In this document: positions 54,788 to 64,000 of the stretch, piece after piece
How positions within the stretch are numbered: position 1 is the first letter of the stretch
Layout: each line of letters begins with the position of its first letter
From: an uncultured delta proteobacterium
Lineage (GTDB): Bacteria > Desulfobacterota > WTBG01 > JAGOGO01
Direction of reading: 5' to 3'
DNA length: 64,000 nucleotides
NCBI GenBank assembly: GCA_963727835.1
Contig: CAVSIB010000055.1
Coordinates: forward strand, 439 to 64,438
Made by a program: the position numbers and the translations under genes
Notes under the pieces: model-generated
Databases searched by the model: none
The model's input: only the letters and a program-made list of their open reading frames with translations
What the model was told of the DNA's origin: nothing

Positions 54788-57088
54788 GTGATTTTGGGCT
54801 TCAAAACAAAAATAAAAAAAATGGTTGAGTTTTTTAAAATTCTAAAAACCGATAGCGGAAAGACCAACATTGACCAGCAAGAAAGGCTTCGGCGCCGTCG
54901 GGAACGGCTCATTATTCTTATCACTGCCGTTCTTATAGCCGGTCTTACGATTCTTGAATCTTATTTTTCCCGAACGTCAGGCAAACTTCCACTTTCCAGC
55001 AACATCCTTGTATATTTTATCCTTAATCTTAATATTATTCTTCTTGTCCTTTTGATCTTTTTAGTTATCCGTAATGTGGTAAAGCTCATTTTTGAACGGC
55101 GCCATGGAATCCTGGGGTCGAAAATTAGAACCAAATTAGTAGCTTCCTTTATCGGGCTCACCATTGTTCCCACCTTACTTCTTTTCTGGACGTCCGCTGG
55201 TTTCATTACCACTACCCTTGATAACATGATTAGTTTCCAGGTAGATCAATCGTTGGTGGAATCTTTAGAGGTTGCGCAGAAGTATTATCAAAATTTAAAA
55301 GACAGTTCTCTTTTTTCGCTCACCAGCTCAGTACTACTATAAGTGAACAGGGTCTTTTATCCCCCAGCGAAAAAGCTCAACTGCAAAAATTTATCGAAAA
55401 AAAATCACAAGAATATAATGTGGGGGCAATTGAAATCTTATCTCCATCGCGGCCTTTTCAAAAAAGTTTAGCTCTTGCCTCTAATCTCGTCCATAGAAGA
55501 TAAAGTTAATTATAAAATTAATCGTGAATTAATTAAGGAAGGCATTCTCACCAAGGATATTGCTAAAATCCAATCTCTTCATAAGGGAGAATTGATCCGA
55601 GGAATTTCCCCGATTTTCTCAAACAACGTACCCGCACAGATAGATGGTTTTATAGTAGTAAGCTACTATATCCCAAACAGTTTGGTGAAAAAGATGACCA
55701 AAATTTCTGACCGTTTTACTGATTATAAACGGCTCAAATCCACGCAACCTCCGATAAAACCAACGTATATTATCCTTTTATCCAGCATCACGTTGCTGTT
55801 GTTTTTTTCCGCCATTATGTTTGGATTCCACTTGGCAAAAACCATAACCGGACCCATTAAAGACTTGGCAGAAGGGACAATGGAAGTCGCTAAAGGAAAT
55901 TTAGATGTCCGGATCGCGATCAATAAAGCTGACGATGAAATTGGCTCGCTAGTGGAGTCGTTTAACAAGATGACCCAGGACTTAAAGACCGGCAAATCCC
56001 AATTAGAACTGGCTAATAAGGATTTGCAGGAAACAAACATCGAATTTGACAAGCGGCGCGCGTATATGGAGATTGTCCTAAAAAATGTCGCCGCCGGAGT
56101 TATTTCGGTCGACCAGGACGGCTTCATAACCACCATTAATAAGTCGGTGGGAAAAATTCTGGGCCTGGAAGTTGAGCCATACTTAAACAAAAATTATCAT
56201 GAAATCCTTCCTCCTCACTATCTCCGGCAGGTTGATGACCTCATTCAAGAGGTTGACCGGTCCAGCAGTTTGACGTTTGAAAAAGAAATTAAACTCACCC
56301 TCCCCACAAAGGTTATTGACCTTTCAACGTTTATCACGCCGCTCAAAGATGAAAGGGGCAATTACCTTGGCTTAGTAATCGTCATAGAAGATGTCACGGA
56401 ACTCCAAAAGGGACAACGCATCGCTGCGTGGAGAGAGGTGGCACGGAGGATTGCCCATGAAATAAAAAATCCTTTAACCCCCATTCAACTTTCAGCCCAG
56501 CGGTTACGCCGCCGGTATAAGGATAAATTTTTGGAGGACGGACAAATTTTTGACGAATGCACTCATACGATTATCGGTCAGGTTGAACTTTTGAAAAATA
56601 TGGTTAACGAATTTTCTCATTTTGCCCGCATGCCGGCAACCAACCCATCCCCCAATTACCTACCGCAAATCATTAATGAGACGTTACCTATTTTTCGTGA
56701 AGCGCACAAAAACATTACCTTTACTTTTGACGAGTCGGAAGCGCCTCCACTGATGAATTTTGACTCCAGCCAAATCAAACGGGCGCTTATCAACATCCTG
56801 GAAAATGCTGTTGAGGCAATTGAAAAAGAAGGTGAAGTAACCCTTAAAACGTTCCATGACAAAAAATTAAAAATTGCGGGCGTAGAAATTGCTGATAATG
56901 GATGCGGTATTCCTCCGGAAGAAAAGTCTCGGCTTTTTGAACCCTATTTTTCAACCAAAAAATTAGGAACCGGTCTCGGGCTTGCTATCGTTGATTCTAT
57001 TATCTCTGACCACCAGGGACATATTCGGGTAAAAGATAATTATCCTAACGGCACGATATTCCGGATCGCATTGCCAACAAAAATTTAA
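54788..57088 (+). CDS. ntrY: NtrY-like HAMP/PAS sensor histidine kinase, two frameshifts (about 55316 and 55470)
   Basis: GSKIRTKLV.SF, HAMP (DEIGSLVESFNKM), PAS, AWREVARRIAHEIKNPLTPIQLSA, DNGCGI and GTGLGL motifs. Confidence 0.88.
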
Positions 57089-57110
57089 CGCTAGGGGAAG
57101 GTGGTTTTCG

Positions 57111-58472
57111 GTGAAAAAAAATATCCTCGTCGTTGATGATGAATCAAGTATCCGGGAATCATTAAGTGGTATTTTACGGGATGAAGGATACGAGGTCTCG
57201 GTTGCCACTGATGGCGTTACGGCCCTCAAAAGGGTGGAGGAAGACCCTCCTGACCTTATTTTTCTCGATATCGTCATGCCGGGAATTGACGGGTTAGAAA
57301 CGTTGCAGAAATTAAAAGAAAGGTTTCCTGAGATCTATGTCATTATTATCTCAGCCTATGGAACAATCGAGACTGCGGTTAAAGCACTCAAATACGGTGC
57401 TTTTGACTTTATTGAAAAACCTCTTTCATTGGATAAGGTTGTCCTAACGGTAAAACATGCCTTCGACTTTCTCAAACTTAATCAAGAAAACTGGCTTCTT
57501 CGAGAAAAAATCTTCCCCACCTTTCGCATCGATGGTATAAGCCCTTCCATTACAAAATTAAAAGAGGATATTGAACGCGCTGCGCCAACGAACGCTTCCA
57601 TCTTAATCACCGGGGAAAACGGAAGCGGAAAGGAACTGGCTGCCCGGCTCATTCATCAAAAAAGCCGTCGTTCCACTAAGTCGTTGGTGGAGGTTAATTG
57701 CGCAGCAATCCCGGAAGAACTCATTGAAAGCGAGCTGTTCGGTTATGAAAAGGGAGCCTTTACGGGCGCTTCTTCTCGGAAGCTCGGAAAATTTGATCTT
57801 GCCCATGACGGTACTCTGTTTCTGGATGAAATCGGAGATATGAGCTTAAAAACTCAGGCAAAGATTTTACGAATCCTGGAGGAACAGAAGTTTGAGCGGG
57901 TCGGAGGTTCAAAAACAATTGAGGTTGATGTGCGACTTATTGCGGCAACCAACAAAGACCTCCTGGAAGAAATTAAAAAAGGGAACTTCCGAGAAGACCT
58001 CTATTTCCGCATCAATGTCATCCCGTTAAACGTTCCCCCGCTTCGGGATCGCAAAGAAGATATCTCCGTGCTGGCCAATGCGTTTCTCAATCGCTTTGCC
58101 AAGGAACAAAACATAGAAGAAAAAAGGATTGGTCCTGAAGCGATGGATATTTTAATAAACTATACTTGGCCGGGAAATGTTCGAGAACTAAAAAACATTA
58201 TTGAACGCCTGGTAATAATGACCAAGGAAGTAGTTATCAAACCTGACGATATTATTCAGAGTCTCAAGGGGGTTTCCTCGTCGAACGATTTTACTAATCT
58301 CTTTAATCTCGACTTGAAAGAAGCCAAGGATGCCTTTGAACAGCACTATATCGCCTACAAGCTTTCCCAATGCGGAGATAACATCTCTAAAACTGCCGAG
58401 ACAATTGGCATTGAGCGGAGTCATCTCCACCGAAAAATTAAGAGTCTCAAGATAAAGTTTAAAAAAGACTAA
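57111..58472 (+). CDS. ntrX: NtrX-like sigma54-dependent response regulator
   Basis: Receiver domain; [23 protein letters not shown] (intact GAFTGA) and WPGNVREL motifs; Fis-type HTH. Confidence 0.92.
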
Positions 58473-58663
58473 AAAAAATTAGCGCTCCTTTCCCAAAAGG
58501 AAATGTAATGCTTTTCTTATTTTTTGACATTGAAACCTAATCGACAAGATATCTATGACACATTACCGAAATAATTGCCCTGCACCTATCACAATTGTTT
58601 TCCGGTCCCAGCTAATTTTTGCCTTTAACGTTTTTTGCTTTTTTTGTTCTATCTTTTTTAGAT

Positions 58664-59377
58664 ATGGCTTTTAATTTTTTCACGCCCGAAACTTTATTCG
58701 ACAATCATTATCGTCCTATCCTTGATCTGGTAGCGGGACATTCCCCTTTCCCTCGCGCCCAAAGCGATCTTTTCTCGAAAGCTTCCAAGACAAGGGCAGC
58801 ACGCATTCATCTCGAAGAAACCGTTTTTTTTGGCCAAGTTGTTTTTAACGATTTGGAACCCAAAAAAACAGTTGAAGTTTGTGCAGGTTTCGGCATCCCC
58901 AGCATAACCCTTAAAAAACTTTTTGGAGTTACGAGTAGTTGTGTTGATAAAGATTCCGGCAAAATGGCGGTTGGGGCACTCATCAGTCAAAAACTCGGTA
59001 TCGATTTAATCTGGGAACATCGAGACCTTTTCGTATATTTAAGACACCATGCTCAAGAACTCAAGGGTGCTACCTTGTTAGCCACTGCCGCTTATTGCCA
59101 GGATAAAAAAAAGGGAAGACCAAAAGGATCTGGGGAAAAAGATCTTGTTCTTTTCGCTCAAAAAAACCAGATGGATATTGCCCTCCTGCCTTACCGTACC
59201 GGGGATATTATTTCTACCGGCTTTTCAAGTGAAAAAAAACGAGTTGAAGAGTACGAGAAAATTTTAACTAATGCGGGATATAAAGTAAAAAAACATTCTA
59301 CCGAACTACTTTTTCGGGGTCAAGGCGCGCCGGATTGGTTTTTTATCGATATGCTTACCGCTAAATTTATCTCTTAA
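58664..59377 (+). CDS. Hypothetical protein with a possible class I SAM-methyltransferase fold
   Basis: VEVCAGFGIPSITL resembles motif I, followed by CVDKD (acidic motif II). Confidence 0.5.
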   Translation: MAFNFFTPETLFDNHYRPILDLVAGHSPFPRAQSDLFSKASKTRAARIHLEETVFFGQVVFNDLEPKKTVEVCAGFGIPSITLKKLFGVTSSCVDKDSGKMAVGALISQKLGIDLIWEHRDLFVYLRHHAQELKGATLLATAAYCQDKKKGRPKGSGEKDLVLFAQKNQMDIALLPYRTGDIISTGFSSEKKRVEEYEKILTNAGYKVKKHSTELLFRGQGAPDWFFIDMLTAKFIS

Positions 59378-59443: not shown

Positions 59444-60309
59444 GTGAATTCCTTAGCTGGTGAAGTGCAGAAAGTCTTGGAGATTGCAAGGCTTCATCCG
59501 GAGCTATCCCCGAGGCTGCTGGCGGTGAAGATCACGGACGAGGAAGATTTCTCGGTATCGGAATCCACGGTATATCGTATCCTGAAAGGCAACGGCCTTA
59601 TCTATCCGAGGCCTCTTATGGAGATGCCGGCCCAGAAGCAATGGAGGCATAAGACCACGAGACCTGATGAACTGTGGCAGTGTGATGCAACGAACCTCTT
59701 TGTTGTTGGCTGGGGCTACTACAAGCTTATTGCCGTGGAAGACGACTTCTCCCGGAAGATTATCGCCCACGATGTGAGGCCTGACGAGAGCGCCTTTTCC
59801 TTATCCGATATCCTGGAGATGGGGCTGGAGAATGCCCGAAAGGAAGGACATTTAACCGAAAATGATTCTATGCCGAAGCTCTACTCGGATAACGGCTCCG
59901 GCTTCACTTCGAGATTTCTCGCAGAGTATCTGTGCCAGCACGGTATAAAACACATTTTTGGCACACCCTACCATCCTCAGGGAAGGGGTAAGATTGAGCG
60001 GTTTAACAGGAGGATCAAGGAGAAGCTGTGCCTGGTCGTCTATTGTTCTCCCGATGAGCTGAAAAAAGCCGTGGATCAGGCCATTGCCACGTACAACAGC
60101 ACCCCCACGAGTCGCTCGATAATGTATCCCCCAAAGATGTGTATGCGGGGAGAAAGGAGGCAATCTTACAACAAAGAAAAGAGAAAAAACAATTGACCTT
60201 GGAACGCAGAAAGAAATACAATCTTAACACGAAAAACGAAGACCCGGACCACCATGAAGTCGCAAACTCAGATTAGAAAAATTTGTCCAATTGAGGCTGA
60301 AGACATACA
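59444..60309 (+). mobile_element. IS481-family remnant (5'-truncated integrase-core transposase plus right end)
   Basis: PELSPR.LA...SESTVYRILK, WQCDAT, DDFSRKI, SDNGSGF and YHPQGRGKIERFN motifs; frameshift near 60105; right end ...TGTCCAATTGAGGCTGAAGACATACA ending in ACA at 60309. Confidence 0.88.
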
Positions 60310-60365: not shown

Positions 60366-60381
60366 TGGTATGGTAATTGAT
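60366..60381 (+). promoter_or_regulatory. sigma54-like promoter upstream of pilA (-12 GA variant)
   Basis: TGGTATGGTAATTGAT: GG-N10-GA, 35 bp before the ATG. Confidence 0.45.
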
Positions 60382-60415: not shown

Positions 60416-60830
60416 ATGCTGTTAAAACTTCAAAAGAAAACTAAAGGTTTTACACTGATTGAGCTTATGATCGTTGTGGCCATTATTGGTATCTTGGCTG
60501 CGATCGCTATCCCCAATTTTTTGCGTTATCAGCAAAAGGCCCGGCAGGCAGAGGCTAAAGCAAATTTGGGCGCTATTTTTACTGCCGAGGCGAGTTATCA
60601 TGCCGAGAACAAAAACATACGCTACCAGAAAGGATGCCGCCGGCAATGTATTGCTAAATTGGGCTCCTACAGGCATTACCCGTTACACTTATTCAATATC
60701 AGGTGTTTCCAGCACTGCGTTTCTTGCCACAGCAACAGGGAGGATCAGTTCTTCTGCAGGTGCCCCGGTGGATACCTGGACAATTGATCAGACTCGGACT
60801 TTGACTAATACCATCAATGGTATCCAGTAG
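60416..60830 (+). CDS. pilA: Type IVa major pilin, one frameshift at the A5 run 60611-60615
   Basis: Leader [11 protein letters not shown]|[24 protein letters not shown] after an AAGGGGGTG RBS. Removing one A joins [11 protein letters not shown]...TINGIQ*, giving about 126 aa mature. Confidence 0.93.
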
Positions 60831-60865
60831 TTAAATTAAACACCATTTCTCGTTGGTATCACATA

Positions 60866-60905
60866 ATACAGAAGGCTGACTTTATGTCTGCCTTCTGTAT
60901 TTATA
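60866..60905 (+). terminator. Intrinsic terminator-like hairpin after pilA
   Basis: 11-bp stem ATACAGAAGGC / GCCTTCTGTAT followed by a T-rich tract. Confidence 0.65.
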
Positions 60906-60960
60906 TTGCTAAATAGCAAGAAATGGTAAGAAATTTTTATCTAATGAAATTTGATTAACT

Positions 60961-63079
60961 TTGTTAAGAATTTTTGCAGATAAGCCACGCATACTTTCCT
61001 TTATTATTTTTCTCATCTCTTTAATCCTTTATCTTTCCACTCTTTGTCCAGACCTTTACTGGAGGGATTCTGGTGAGTTTCCCGTAGTGGCCTATCAATT
61101 AGGAATAGCTCACCCTGCGGGCTCTCCCTTCTATGCCTTAATCACCAAAATCTTTACCTTTCTTCCCTTCGGCAATATCGCTTTTAAAGTAAACCTTGCC
61201 TCCGCTTTCTTCGGCGCTGTCCTTATCAGCCTTATTTTCCTTTTGATCAATGAATGTCTTAAACTTATCTTCCCTTCCCAAAATGATAAACATTGGCGTG
61301 CCTTGAGCGGAGCCCTTGCTGCTTCTCTATACGCAGTTTCTGCCATCTGGGAAAACTCGGTTGTGGCCGAAGTGTATACCCTCCAAAATTGTTTTATCGT
61401 TTTAATCGCACTTTTACTCGTTCGGGGAATCAAGCAAACCGAAAAAAAATCTTGCCTTTACCTGGCTGCTTTTCTTTTCGGCCTTAGCAGCGGAGCCCAT
61501 ATCATCATGATCCTCTATATACCGACTCTCCTCCTTTTTCTCTGGTTATTCTACCGAAACTCTATTCGCTTATCTCATCTGGGAATCATAATTACGTTCG
61601 TCATCTTAGGCGCTTCTATCTATCTCTACCTCCCTGTAAGAGCATCAGTTAATCCCTATTATGACTGGGGTAATCCGAAGAATGTTAAAAATTTTATTGT
61701 CCATGTGACGGATCAAAAAGATGCCTCATGCCACTTTTCCTTTAATCCACAAGGCGTTATGCACACTCTCAAAAAATATGGCCACTTTTACTTTGAAGAT
61801 TTTAATGTTATGGGAATTTTCTTGGGTTTGGCAGGACTGGGAATCTTTTGTCGAAAAAATCCCCGCCTTTTCCTTGGCCTTGGAGCATTTTTCTTTAGCC
61901 AGTGGTTTTTCTTTATCCGTTATTGGCCATGGTCTTCAGCCTATATTGGTACGTTTATCTTTTTTTGCTTGGGAATTGGAGTCGCTTTTTTTGTTATTAT
62001 CGTAAAATTTAACAAAATGAATTTAAATAAAACCATTCGTTGGTATCAGCGCTATTTGGTTTTCGGTGTTGCAGGTTCCCTGTGCATAATCTATTTTTTC
62101 TTTTTTATAAAATCAAACTGGGTTGAGAATAACAAATCAATCTATTGGAATGCATATAATTTTAACCGATATTTCTTAAATCAAATGGAATATAAAGGCT
62201 GTCTGATATCTTCGATTACTTACTTCGGCACATCCTACATGCAGCAATGTGAAAATTACCGCCTGGATATTACAAACTTTTTAGTTTCTGAGTTTTTTGC
62301 CCCTGAATTTTTTAATCAAGTTACCCAAAATCGTTTTCCCCTTGTAATGATTCCTCCTATCAATAATCCTTCCATAGGTGAAGCTATTATTAACATGAAC
62401 ATAAAAAATAATCTTTTTTACTGGGAACCAGATCGCAAATTCAATAAAAGAGTTGAAGCGAACCTTCAACCAGATGGGTTGCTACTTCTACATTACCCCC
62501 TCTCCCCAACCCATTAGTCAAGAGTCAATAAAAATCCATTTAAATAAAATAAGAGATTTTTTTAATAACAAAATATTAGGTTTCTCGCAACCCACGGATA
62601 TGGAAGAAAAAAACATGTACAGTGTATTGCTGGAAAGCTCTTCCGCTATTTTTTTTAATAAAGGGGAGTACCCTTTGGCTATCCAACACCTTCAAGCGGC
62701 TGATATACTTACTCCTGATGATGTGGCAGTCCTGAATGATTTGGCAGCGGTTTATGCTGAGATGGGCCTTTTTGATAAAGCTGAAATCAGTTTAAAAAAA
62801 GCTTTGGATATTTTTCCCTCTGATATCTTTACCCTTCAAAATTTAGGTCAACTATATCTTTATACCCAACACTATGATATGGCACTGCCCGTTTACAAAA
62901 AAATCCTTAAAGAAGATCCAAAAAACTTAAAAGCAAATTTTGACCTTGGCCTTTGTTATGAAAAAATCGGAAACATTGGCAAGGCCAATGATTCATTTCA
63001 AAGGGTAATCACCCTGAGTCCAAAAGATCCACTGGCCACCGAAGCACGGGAAAAGTTATCCACCATCACTATGCATTGA
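60961..63079 (+). CDS. DUF2723 (TMEM260-like) membrane glycosyltransferase with C-terminal TPRs; frameshift near 62480
   Basis: TLCPDLYWRDSGEF...LGIAHPAGSPFY..ITKIF.FLPFGNIAFKVN..SA, AEVYTL and YLYLPVRA...DWGNP motifs; about 11 TM segments. 62453-63079 encodes TPRs (AVLNDLAAVYAEMGLFDKAE...). Confidence 0.85.
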
Positions 63080-63143
63080 TTATTTCTTACCCTTATGATA
63101 ATTAAAAAAATTAAACTCTTCGCTTTCTGAAAAAGGGGTGTCA

Positions 63144-64000
63144 ATGTATAAAAATAAAACTATCGGGGTAGTAGTACCAGCATATAATGAAGAAACTCTG
63201 ATCGTCCGCGTCATTGATACCATGCCTGATTTTGTTGATAAAATCATTGCTGTCAATGACGCCAGCACTGATAATACCGCTTGGGTTTTAGAAAATGAAA
63301 AAAACATCACTCTAACCTCGAAATAATCACTCATACGAAAAATCAGGGAGTCGGAGGAGCTATTATTACGGGATATAAGCGCGCCAAAGAGATAAAAATC
63401 GATGTGGCTGTGGTTATGGCCGGTGATGCACAAATGGACCCCACCGACCTTCCAGCCATTATTGCCCCAGTGGTAAATAATCAGGTTGACTATAGTAAAG
63501 GGAACCGACTGTTTCGGGGAGAATCTTGGAGCATGATACCCCATTATAGATATTTGGGAAACTCCTTCCTCTCCTTCCTTACCAAGATTGCCTCTGGTTA
63601 TTGGCATATTGCTGATTCTCAATGTGGATACACCGCTATTTCCCTCAATGCCCTTAATCTCCTTGATTTAGACGATATCTATAAAAAATATGGTGTACCG
63701 AATGACATCCTTATTAAACTTAATATTGAAAATCTGCGGGTCGCGATGAAGTATACGGCCAATTTACAACATCGGTGAAAAATCGGGGATCCGTCTTTGG
63801 AAAGCAATTCCTACTATAAGTAGACTACTTTTTCGGGGATTTTTTCTGCGCCTTTTCATTAAGTATGTGATCAAGGATTTTCATCCTCTTGTTCTGTTCT
63901 ATTGCATGGCTTTTACAACTATCCCTCTAGCCTTTATATTCCTTTGTAGAGTTTTTTATATTTATTATAATACCGGCCTTGTTCCACCCACATCGCACTT
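63144..64000 (+). CDS. GT2 glycosyltransferase (polyprenyl-phosphate sugar synthase/DPM1-like), frameshifted, runs off the window
   Basis: VVVPAYNEE, VNDASTD, NQGVGGAI.TGY, MAGDAQMDP, GNR and DSQCGY motifs; C-terminal hydrophobic segments. Breaks near 63310 and 63745. Confidence 0.85.

Follow-up and report, generated by a model that had tools for sequence, protein, structure and literature searches.

In Pseudomonas aeruginosa the pilin glycosyltransferases TfpO and TfpW are encoded directly after pilA. TfpW is not known to have a tetratricopeptide repeat (TPR) domain, has its donor genes elsewhere in the genome and polymerises D-arabinofuranose (D-Araf). As outlined in its description (bioRxiv 10.1101/2020.04.19.049825), this enzyme uses a polyprenyl-phosphate-sugar donor and O-glycosylates Ser/Thr residues of pilin in the periplasm. 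The other described system of concern here is human TMEM260 (CAZy GT117; PDB 9rql, 9rqm and 9rqn), an endoplasmic reticulum protein O-mannosyltransferase of IPT domains. In this enzyme D52 and H67 form the sugar-recognition motif and are both essential (D52A is inactive), R264 and Y267 belong to the donor-loading loop, R355 is a further defined residue, in TMH10, D441 of the luminal Rossmann-like domain is the catalytic base and an asparagine ladder of the TPR domain recruits the extended acceptor peptide (PMC10214176; bioRxiv 10.64898/2026.03.17.711096). Its bacterial relatives are mentioned only as 'distant homologs in bacteria' (PMC10214176). The present work deals with the gene cluster at 60416-64000 of a stretch of 64,000 nucleotides from an uncultured delta proteobacterium (the window, that is, the whole stretch of DNA analysed), where a pilin gene is followed by the gene of a TMEM260-like (PF11028, DUF2723) glycosyltransferase of the GT-C class and by a family 2 glycosyltransferase (GT2) gene. 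The cluster is probably a dedicated three-component cassette for pilin O-glycosylation.

The window is G000:C55:439-64438 and comes from a metagenome-assembled genome (MAG) of 2.15 Mb in 62 contigs, 84% complete; the contig extends 1,038 nt past the window end. Its genes were read by three-frame translation and Pfam. An original prediction, made from the letters of this DNA, had described here a pilA gene, a terminator, a DUF2723 membrane protein with a DSGE motif and TPRs, and a DPM1-like GT2, and had taken them for a pilin O-glycosylation system. All of these elements were found at the place where it had put them, in the order pilA, hairpin, PF11028 GT-C with TPR domain and GT2:

60416-60830, plus strand: pilA, a short type IVa-like major pilin (N_methyl E 2e-10)
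60865-60901, plus strand: stem-loop after pilA, terminator- or attenuator-like, by folding
60961-63079, plus strand: TMEM260-like (PF11028, GT117-type) GT-C with Rossmann-like and TPR domains
60961-62517: PF11028 part of the GT-C (E 2e-35)
61066-61077, plus strand: DSGE motif of the GT-C, equivalent to human D52-S-G-E55
61702-61722, plus strand: donor-loading-loop motif HVTDQKD of the GT-C
62453-63079: TPR part of the GT-C, in a shifted frame (Pfam TPR families)
63144 to about 64088 (window end 64000), plus strand: GT2, polyprenyl-phosphate-sugar synthase-like (PF00535)

The basis of the cassette reading is formed by the identities of the genes, the full-length homology of the GT-C to TMEM260, the conservation of its donor site and the invariable order of pilA, GT-C and GT2 across three phyla. 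The same prediction had stated that no substrate of a bacterial DUF2723 protein was known, and this agrees with the literature, in which a search for such a substrate found no published assignment. A published link between TMEM260 and pilin was also sought there and not found, and the term 'GT117' occurs in work on the human enzyme and in one unrelated paper.

By homology the GT-C is a firm member of the TMEM260 family. The window protein scores 122.6 bits against PF11028 (cut-off 24.2; E 2e-35) and 126.5 bits in the genome search, and its TMEM260-like and TPR open reading frames (ORFs) are one gene, interrupted by a single frameshift in a C-run near 62490 (62485-62500). The orthologue in ORM2a (CP113000.1), a complete genome of the same genus whose cassette locus has no frameshift, is a single ORF of 705 aa. 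A profile built from 66 homologues aligns to chain 9rql of human TMEM260 in a single stretch, residues 31-655 (E 4.7e-93), which takes in D52 and E55, which bears out the predicted kinship and its DSGE motif. The domain order (GT-C core, Rossmann-like domain, TPR) is the same in the bacterial and the human protein. In the AlphaFold2 model of the ORM2a enzyme (pLDDT 95, pTM 0.94) the transmembrane (TM) helices reach to about residue 392 and are followed by an alpha/beta domain (399-545) and by TPR helices (548-704, seven of TPR type). Foldseek of this model against the PDB library returned the GT-C enzymes PglB and STT3 with a TM score of about 0.42; 9rql was not among the matches returned. The key human residues were compared with all the bacterial homologues by sequence alignment only. 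The window motif WRDSGEF...GIAHPAG corresponds to human D52, E55 and H67, a trio of donor-site residues kept by 65 of the 66 aligned bacterial homologues. The equivalents of E454, R457 and D459 are also retained in essentially all of them, as an E..RPD motif. At the R355 column the multiple sequence alignment gives S or T, and by eye an invariant bacterial FIR(Y/F)W matches human E-R355-F-W one helix turn away.

The proposed class of the GT2, a polyprenyl-phosphate-sugar synthase of the DPM1/GtrB/ArnC type, is supported by its matches. The window protein contains PF00535 (E 1.5e-18) and two C-terminal hydrophobic (TM) helices, and it is 83% identical to the intact 326-aa protein of ORM2a. Two frameshifts interrupt the gene, at about 63300-63325 and about 63740-63765, and its end lies about 88 nt past the window. 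The best solved relative is the dolichol-phosphate-mannose synthase of Pyrococcus (5mlz, E 1.8e-12), in line with the DPM1-like label given to it beforehand, and the next is ArnC (9hwj). The best NCBIfam matches were the polyprenyl-phosphate-sugar synthases AglJ, PpgS, PgfS and ArnC, all far below their cut-offs (52.7 bits against a cut-off of 325, for example). Naming the sugar from the GT2 sequence was rejected, since no equivalog cut-off is reached and the sugar is for that reason not readable from it.

The linkage of these genes was searched by alignment of the GT-C proteins against one genome per species of the GTDB collection, which yielded 78 loci, flanks of up to 10 kb on either side included. 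Pilin signal motifs and homologues of the neighbouring genes were then looked for in each locus, and a tree of 74 GT-C proteins was built. The clade of the window protein (SH-aLRT 86) comprises 37 rows from Thermodesulfobacteriota, Nitrospirota (Nitrospira and Manganitrophus) and Nitrospinota. A pilin gene lies directly upstream on the same strand in 32 of 32 assessable rows, with none lacking it; the other 5 of the 37 are not assessable for pilin because of contig ends. These upstream pilins have 110-145 aa, and their cleavage motif is placed 400-630 nt before the GT-C match. Changes of the pilin label on the tree are far fewer than in any of 500 shuffles. The GT2 orthologue is found downstream in all 31 assessable loci of the window clade and in none of 37 other loci. 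Identity among the orthologues of the window clade is 46-100%, and 55-63% between phyla.

A second clade (100% support) includes Abyssobacteria, Poribacteria and further MAGs, and has pilS-pilR, a different GT2 and two to three DUF2723 genes, with two pilins of 160-169 aa downstream of these; the association with pilin is thus kept in another gene order. The other homologues, from Hydrogenedentota, Elusimicrobiota, Armatimonadota, Planctomycetota, the candidate phyla radiation and archaea, have no pilin within 10 kb. The survey of the phylum of the window covered 401 genomes, 54 of them with a PF11028 match. For about 28 of about 77 such matches a same-strand pilin lies upstream at a distance below 1 kb, and for another three within 2.5 kb; chance alone would give about 0.04 pilin-adjacent cases (with about 4 pilin-like matches per 3.6-Mb genome). 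The pilin-linked matches of this survey belong to at least 9 GTDB families. The original prediction had let its case depend on whether DUF2723 genes adjoin pilins in other genomes, and in these counts they do.

The surroundings of the cassette differ among its carriers. In ORM2a the order is pilS (6TM_PilS), two genes on the other strand (for a GT4 and a membrane protein), pilA and GT-C, and then a PMT_2-like GT-C (657 aa), GT2 (326 aa), a 255-aa membrane protein, an ABC ATPase, an ABC-2 permease and a small TPR protein. The order pilS and/or pilR, pilA, GT-C and GT2 recurs in further genomes of the same family and in two remote families within the phylum (G043, G053). In ORM2a and other Thermodesulfobacteriota the GT-C/GT2 pair is thus placed inside a pilus locus, after pilS(-pilR)-pilA and before the membrane protein, ABC ATPase and ABC-2 permease. 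One Nitrospira locus has three pilins before the pair, and GT4s, AsnB, methyltransferases and a MurJ-like protein after it. In a Nitrospina locus, pilA, GT-C, GT2 and a YfhO-like GT-C form a group by themselves, flanked by unrelated housekeeping genes (NadD-like, LapB-like, aspartate-oxidase and FtsK), so the link to pilin there is no by-product of a larger pilus or polysaccharide cluster.

Several loci have additional or rearranged genes. An extra GT-C gene after the cassette was identified as YfhO-like in Nitrospina (L085:13121-15451) and as PMT_2/LIC_10190-like in ORM2a (L032:6396-8369), G002 and G007; there is none at the window's copy. Beside pilS of ORM2a (L032:15623-18037) there is a 545-aa GT-C-like membrane protein with C-terminal TPRs, TMTC-like by eye, together with a GT2 without TM helices (250 aa, AglJ/PpgS-like), and this may be a second pair of lipid-sugar synthase and transferase at the same pilus locus. 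G005, of the same family, contains two tandem GT-C genes (L034:9659-14089). These are 100% identical over the first ~355 residues (about 99% in DNA) and ~30% identical over the remainder, which comprises the last TM helices, the Rossmann-like domain and the TPR domain, that is, a common donor module with differing acceptor lobes; gene conversion or an assembly artefact could account for the pattern. In G276:C272:18000-24873 (L136) the order is pilA, pilA, membrane protein, ABC-2 permease, GT-C and ABC ATPase, with the GT-C inside the transporter set that follows pilA elsewhere. A looser link to the pilus was seen in G141:C1:2668000-2683000 (L139) and in L140, loci of two genomes with short Geobacter-type pilins. 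There the gene of a PF11028 protein without TPRs (621 aa) comes after an LPG_synthase_TM (MprF-flippase-like) gene, a possible flippase partner, and only aroE stands between the PF11028 gene and pilB-pilT-pilC-pilS-pilR-pilA.

The pilin of the window has a GFTLIE motif and a precursor of about 137 aa, and presents the characters of a type IVa major pilin: a class III signal peptide with G-1, F+1 and E+5, a hydrophobic alpha1-N and a short globular domain. Its gene has one frameshift, near 60606-60616 in an A5 run. The intact orthologue of ORM2a has 129 aa, and its N-terminal part matches NF041775 PilA_Myxo (E 1e-33) and also TIGR02532. Identity of the window pilin to the pilins of the same genus and the same family is 54-58%. 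The Ser/Thr-rich globular region pointed out by the original prediction was confirmed by count, at 21 of 74 residues (28%). Ser/Thr content ranges from 11 to 43% among the linked pilins, and this richness is weak support for glycosylation. The linked pilins share a fold signature composed of G(F/W), R-Y-(S/T)-Y-(S/T), F-(T/S)-A-x-A and D-x-W-x-I, with many Ser/Thr in strands.

Past pilA, where a terminator had been expected, the hairpin at 60865-60901 has a folding energy of -24.8 kcal/mol (z -6.7; 0 of 200 shuffles fold as well) and is followed by UAUUUAUAUU. A simple terminator scan did not pick it up, because the stem holds a mismatch. The abundant pilin message would end at this hairpin and part of the transcription would read through to the glycosyltransferase genes. 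Of 35 related loci, 14 have a canonical TGGCAY-N5-YTGC upstream of the pilin, compared with 9% of random windows of 220 nt; the sigma-54-type motif of the window itself, TGGTATGGTAATTGA, is a poor match to the consensus. The features on the 5' side of pilA are:

55475-57088: NtrY-like kinase (Pfam)
57111-58472: NtrX-like sigma-54 regulator (Pfam)
58619-59377: orf252, an ORF without family, 95% identical in G002
59444-60196, plus strand: rve-type transposase remnant (rve E 2e-15)
60366-60380, plus strand: the weak sigma-54-type promoter-like motif, 36 nt 5' of the pilA start codon

In the relatives a 6TM_PilS kinase and/or a sigma-54 regulator is encoded directly 5' of pilA, and in the window the rve transposase remnant sits where they carry the 6TM_PilS kinase gene. 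A PilS orthologue was sought in the MAG assembly and not found. The kinase and regulator at 55475-58472 were considered as PilSR and rejected in favour of an NtrYX-like pair, because their orthologues in the same-genus MAG G002 (95-97% identical) stand several kb from a separate 6TM PilS beside pilA. On the other side, beyond the window end, the contig contains an acetyltransferase gene and then a membrane protein gene that runs to the contig end, with one frameshift each. The first of them, a hexapeptide-repeat acetyltransferase gene (about 64175-64700; C55 about 64610-65140) between GT2 and the membrane protein, was identified at the cassette only in the window genome and G002; its product could acetylate the sugar of the cassette.

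The mechanism proposed for the cassette comprises five steps. The GT2 would load one sugar from a nucleotide sugar onto polyprenyl phosphate at the cytoplasmic face, and a flippase would turn the lipid-sugar to the periplasmic face. The TMEM260-like GT-C would then bind it in its membrane domain through the Asp, Glu and His of the DSGE...HP motif, while its periplasmic Rossmann-like and TPR lobe would hold the globular part of the membrane-anchored prepilin or pilin. Finally, the sugar would be passed to Ser/Thr of the pilin before its entry into the fibre. We infer pilin as the acceptor, Ser/Thr as the sites and the topology of the GT-C, the last from homology and the odd number of predicted TM helices. 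As to the flippase, an ABC-2 transporter follows the cassette in Thermodesulfobacteriota and a MurJ-like protein in Nitrospira, neither of which is universal.

Several observations weigh against this reading. The donor-loading loop of the pilin-linked clade is T-D-R-K-D or T-D-R-R-H, compared with L-R264-E-E-Y267 in human TMEM260, so that the Arg is displaced to position 265 and D or H replaces Y267; in the window the loop is T-D-Q-K-D, with Gln for the Arg. This Gln is common to both copies of G002, and is for that reason a lineage trait and not a read error; the second copy in the window genome (contig C54) has Arg. The pilin-linked clade also lacks an equivalent of D441, with a 2-residue deletion there, although a structural equivalent elsewhere is possible given that the comparison is a sequence alignment. 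The window and ORM2a both have S at the aligned position, where the rest of the clade has S, T, G, E, M or Y. The non-pilin clades keep R264 and Y267, and most also have D at the D441 position. Since the D441 and Y267 equivalents are absent, the chemistry of the pilin-linked clade may differ from that of the human enzyme and may be no straight copy of it. On the pilin side, a conserved Ser/Thr acceptor column was sought in 36 linked pilins, and none reached at least 80% outside the N-terminal helix. No GtrA-, SMR- or Wzx-type flippase was recognisable in the cassette of the window or of ORM2a. Nitrospira and some Thermodesulfobacteriota carry GT4s, AsnB, methyltransferases and a MurJ-like flippase after the pair, so that the GT-C and GT2 could be part of a larger glycan pathway. 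Finally, in the window genome all the cassette genes are frameshifted, pilS is replaced by an insertion sequence remnant and a PilB-like gene is a 90-codon remnant. The glycosylation function proposed by the original prediction is supported by linkage and homology as a well-founded hypothesis, to which two corrections apply: the D441 and Y267 equivalents are absent, and the sugar cannot be read from the GT2.

It is quite improbable that the GT-C and GT2 modify a target other than pilin, such as an envelope protein, lipid A or lipopolysaccharide, or an exopolysaccharide, and stand beside pilA by way of a PilR/sigma-54 regulon or a common surface function. Pairs of GT2 and GT-C such as ArnC/ArnT and CsbB/YfhO do modify lipids and teichoic acids (PMC11127046, for three-component systems), and such a role would suit the GT4s, AsnB, methyltransferases and MurJ-like flippase that follow the pair in Nitrospira and G043, and the extra PMT_2-like and YfhO-like GT-C genes of some genomes. 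However, the pilin is immediately adjacent in every assessable row across three phyla and is kept in the altered order of the second clade, Nitrospina has a pilin at the cassette and no other pilus or polysaccharide gene nearby, and the sole characterised member of the family is a protein O-glycosyltransferase whose TPR acceptor-binding domain is retained here (PMC10214176; bioRxiv 10.64898/2026.03.17.711096). A general periplasmic protein O-glycosylation pathway, with pilin merely as its most abundant client as in the case of Neisseria PglL, would agree with TPR domains able to bind many extended peptides, and the two to three tandem GT-C paralogues with divergent acceptor domains in some genomes could mean several substrates. 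We regard it as very improbable: general O-oligosaccharyltransferases are not tied to pilin genes, whereas in the window clade the tie is absolute, and human TMEM260 is narrowly substrate-specific (PMC10214176). The loss of the D441 and Y267 equivalents and the shifted loop Arg might even be taken to mean that the DUF2723 protein of the window clade has lost catalysis and serves as a pilin-binding assembly or chaperone factor, an idea that is extremely improbable, as there is almost no variation in the donor-site D, E and H or in the E..RPD motif, and as the co-inheritance of a donor-making GT2 in all assessable loci, at the identities given above, would be senseless for a non-enzyme. A dedicated pilin O-glycosylation cassette is accordingly the reading kept for the locus.

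Whatever the cassette does elsewhere, its copy in the window genome could be a decaying, non-functional remnant, an explanation that we find unlikely, though serious enough to be weighed. There is one frameshift each in pilA, GT-C, the acetyltransferase gene and the last gene, and two in GT2, several of them in A or C runs. The final 5 kb of the contig thus contains at least six frameshifts, whereas the reading frames of the 8 kb before it, with the two-component system and orf252, are open. The homopolymer count of the terminal 4.6 kb is not much above that of the rest of the window, so uniform homopolymer error alone cannot explain the local excess. Decay would also fit the replacement of pilS by a transposase fragment, the Gln in place of the donor-loop Arg, the size of the MAG assembly (2.15 Mb against 3.3 Mb in ORM2a) and the fate of the 605-aa PilB-like ATPase gene of ORM2a (L129:8328-10145), which in the window genome is cut to its last ~90 codons with stops (C12:19923-20190). 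This remnant lies between neighbours 87% and 80% identical to those of ORM2a; the gene has truly been deleted in part, a hint that the pilus system is eroding. On the opposite side, frameshifts are frequent too on contig C12, in ordinary genes, and on C54, in the second copy of the cassette, the same-genus MAG G002 (with long-read-style contig names) is equally broken at other positions, several shifts fall in homopolymer runs, PilT, PilC and a secretin are present in the MAG, and the loop Gln is a trait shared with G002. A genome-wide frame-junction heuristic for frameshift density was uninformative, missing most known shifts of the region. Assembly errors are the more likely origin of the frameshifts.

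The second, partial cassette of the window genome (C54:3765-9553, on a 9.5-kb contig) is frameshifted as well. Its GT-C, present from residue 168 on, is 50% identical to that of ORM2a and has a T-D-R-K-D loop; the other genes encode a GT2 (73%), a membrane protein, an ABC ATPase, an ABC-2 permease (87%) and a TPR protein (87%). C54 may lie just downstream of the end of the window's contig, with GT-C, GT2 and membrane protein in tandem duplication.

Taken jointly, these results allow a wider proposal, offered tentatively and as a possibility somewhat short of probable: bacterial GT117 proteins would form a third, widespread class of dedicated pilin O-glycosyltransferases. The clade of the window would then have spread as a self-contained cassette among Nitrospinota, Nitrospirota and Thermodesulfobacteriota and would use a rewired active site (no D441-type base and an acidic T-D-R-K-D loop) that activates the acceptor in another way than the human enzyme, while tandem paralogues, identical in the donor module and divergent in the acceptor lobe, would diversify the sites. 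The GT2 identities of 55-63% across phyla and a GT-C tree that does not follow the phyla fit such a transfer. Pilin glycosylation by GT-C enzymes with lipid-linked donors is known in the literature; what would be new is an enzyme family without an assigned bacterial function.

If the cassette does glycosylate pilin, this would be the first function for any bacterial member of the large TMEM260/DUF2723 family, and type IV pili would have a third enzymatic way of becoming glycosylated, next to the Wzy_C-type TfpO/PglL and TfpW. With substrate, donor synthase and transferase in one operon, it would also provide a simple bacterial model for an enzyme whose loss in humans leads to a congenital syndrome of heart and kidney. 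Among the carriers are Nitrospina and Nitrospira, which oxidise nitrite, Manganitrophus, which oxidises manganese, and the benzene-fermenting ORM2 lineage. These groups are environmentally important and hard to grow, and in them the surface chemistry of the pilus may matter for aggregation, syntrophy and phage resistance. The altered active-site signature of the pilin-linked clade poses a concrete question on the mechanism of GT-C enzymes.

Compared with the known systems, the cassette is closest in its enzyme to human TMEM260, with full-length homology, the same domain build and retained equivalents of D52, E55, H67, E454, R457 and D459. TMEM260 takes a polyprenyl-phosphate-monosaccharide donor made by a DPM1-type GT2, and a gene for such a GT2 adjoins the GT-C in the cassette. 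Unlike the human system, the bacterial cassette encodes the presumed substrate and the donor synthase together, the presumed acceptor being a pilin and not an IPT domain, and its enzyme has no D441 equivalent, D or H for Y267 and the loop Arg one residue later (Gln in the window). In position the locus resembles that of TfpW, the pilin arabinofuranosyltransferase of group IV P. aeruginosa, as a GT-C is encoded directly 3' of pilA; going by its published description, TfpW belongs to a different GT-C family, and the likeness is a positional and mechanistic analogy only. TfpO/PilO and PglL likewise glycosylate pilin in the periplasm, and tfpO also follows pilA, but these enzymes transfer preassembled undecaprenyl-pyrophosphate-linked oligosaccharides and contain a Wzy_C domain, for which no protein of the window locus or of the ORM2a locus gave a Pfam match.

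The pairing of a GT2 polyprenyl-phosphate-sugar synthase with an outer-face GT-C is shared with GtrA/GtrB/GtrC, ArnC/ArnEF/ArnT, CsbB/GtcA/YfhO and the actinobacterial Ppm1/Pmt (PMC11127046). The cassette differs from these three-component systems in that no GtrA- or SMR-type flippase is recognisable in it and in that its target would be one specific protein. The gene order of the relatives recalls the pilS-pilR-pilA-pilG-pilH-pilI locus of Myxococcus xanthus: the N-terminal half of the pilin best matches PilA_Myxo, and pilA follows pilS/pilR and precedes a membrane protein, an ABC ATPase and an ABC-2 permease. By their position these transporter genes are putative equivalents of pilGHI. Unlike the M. 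xanthus locus, the cassette region has GT-C and GT2 inserted after pilA, ahead of the transporter genes.

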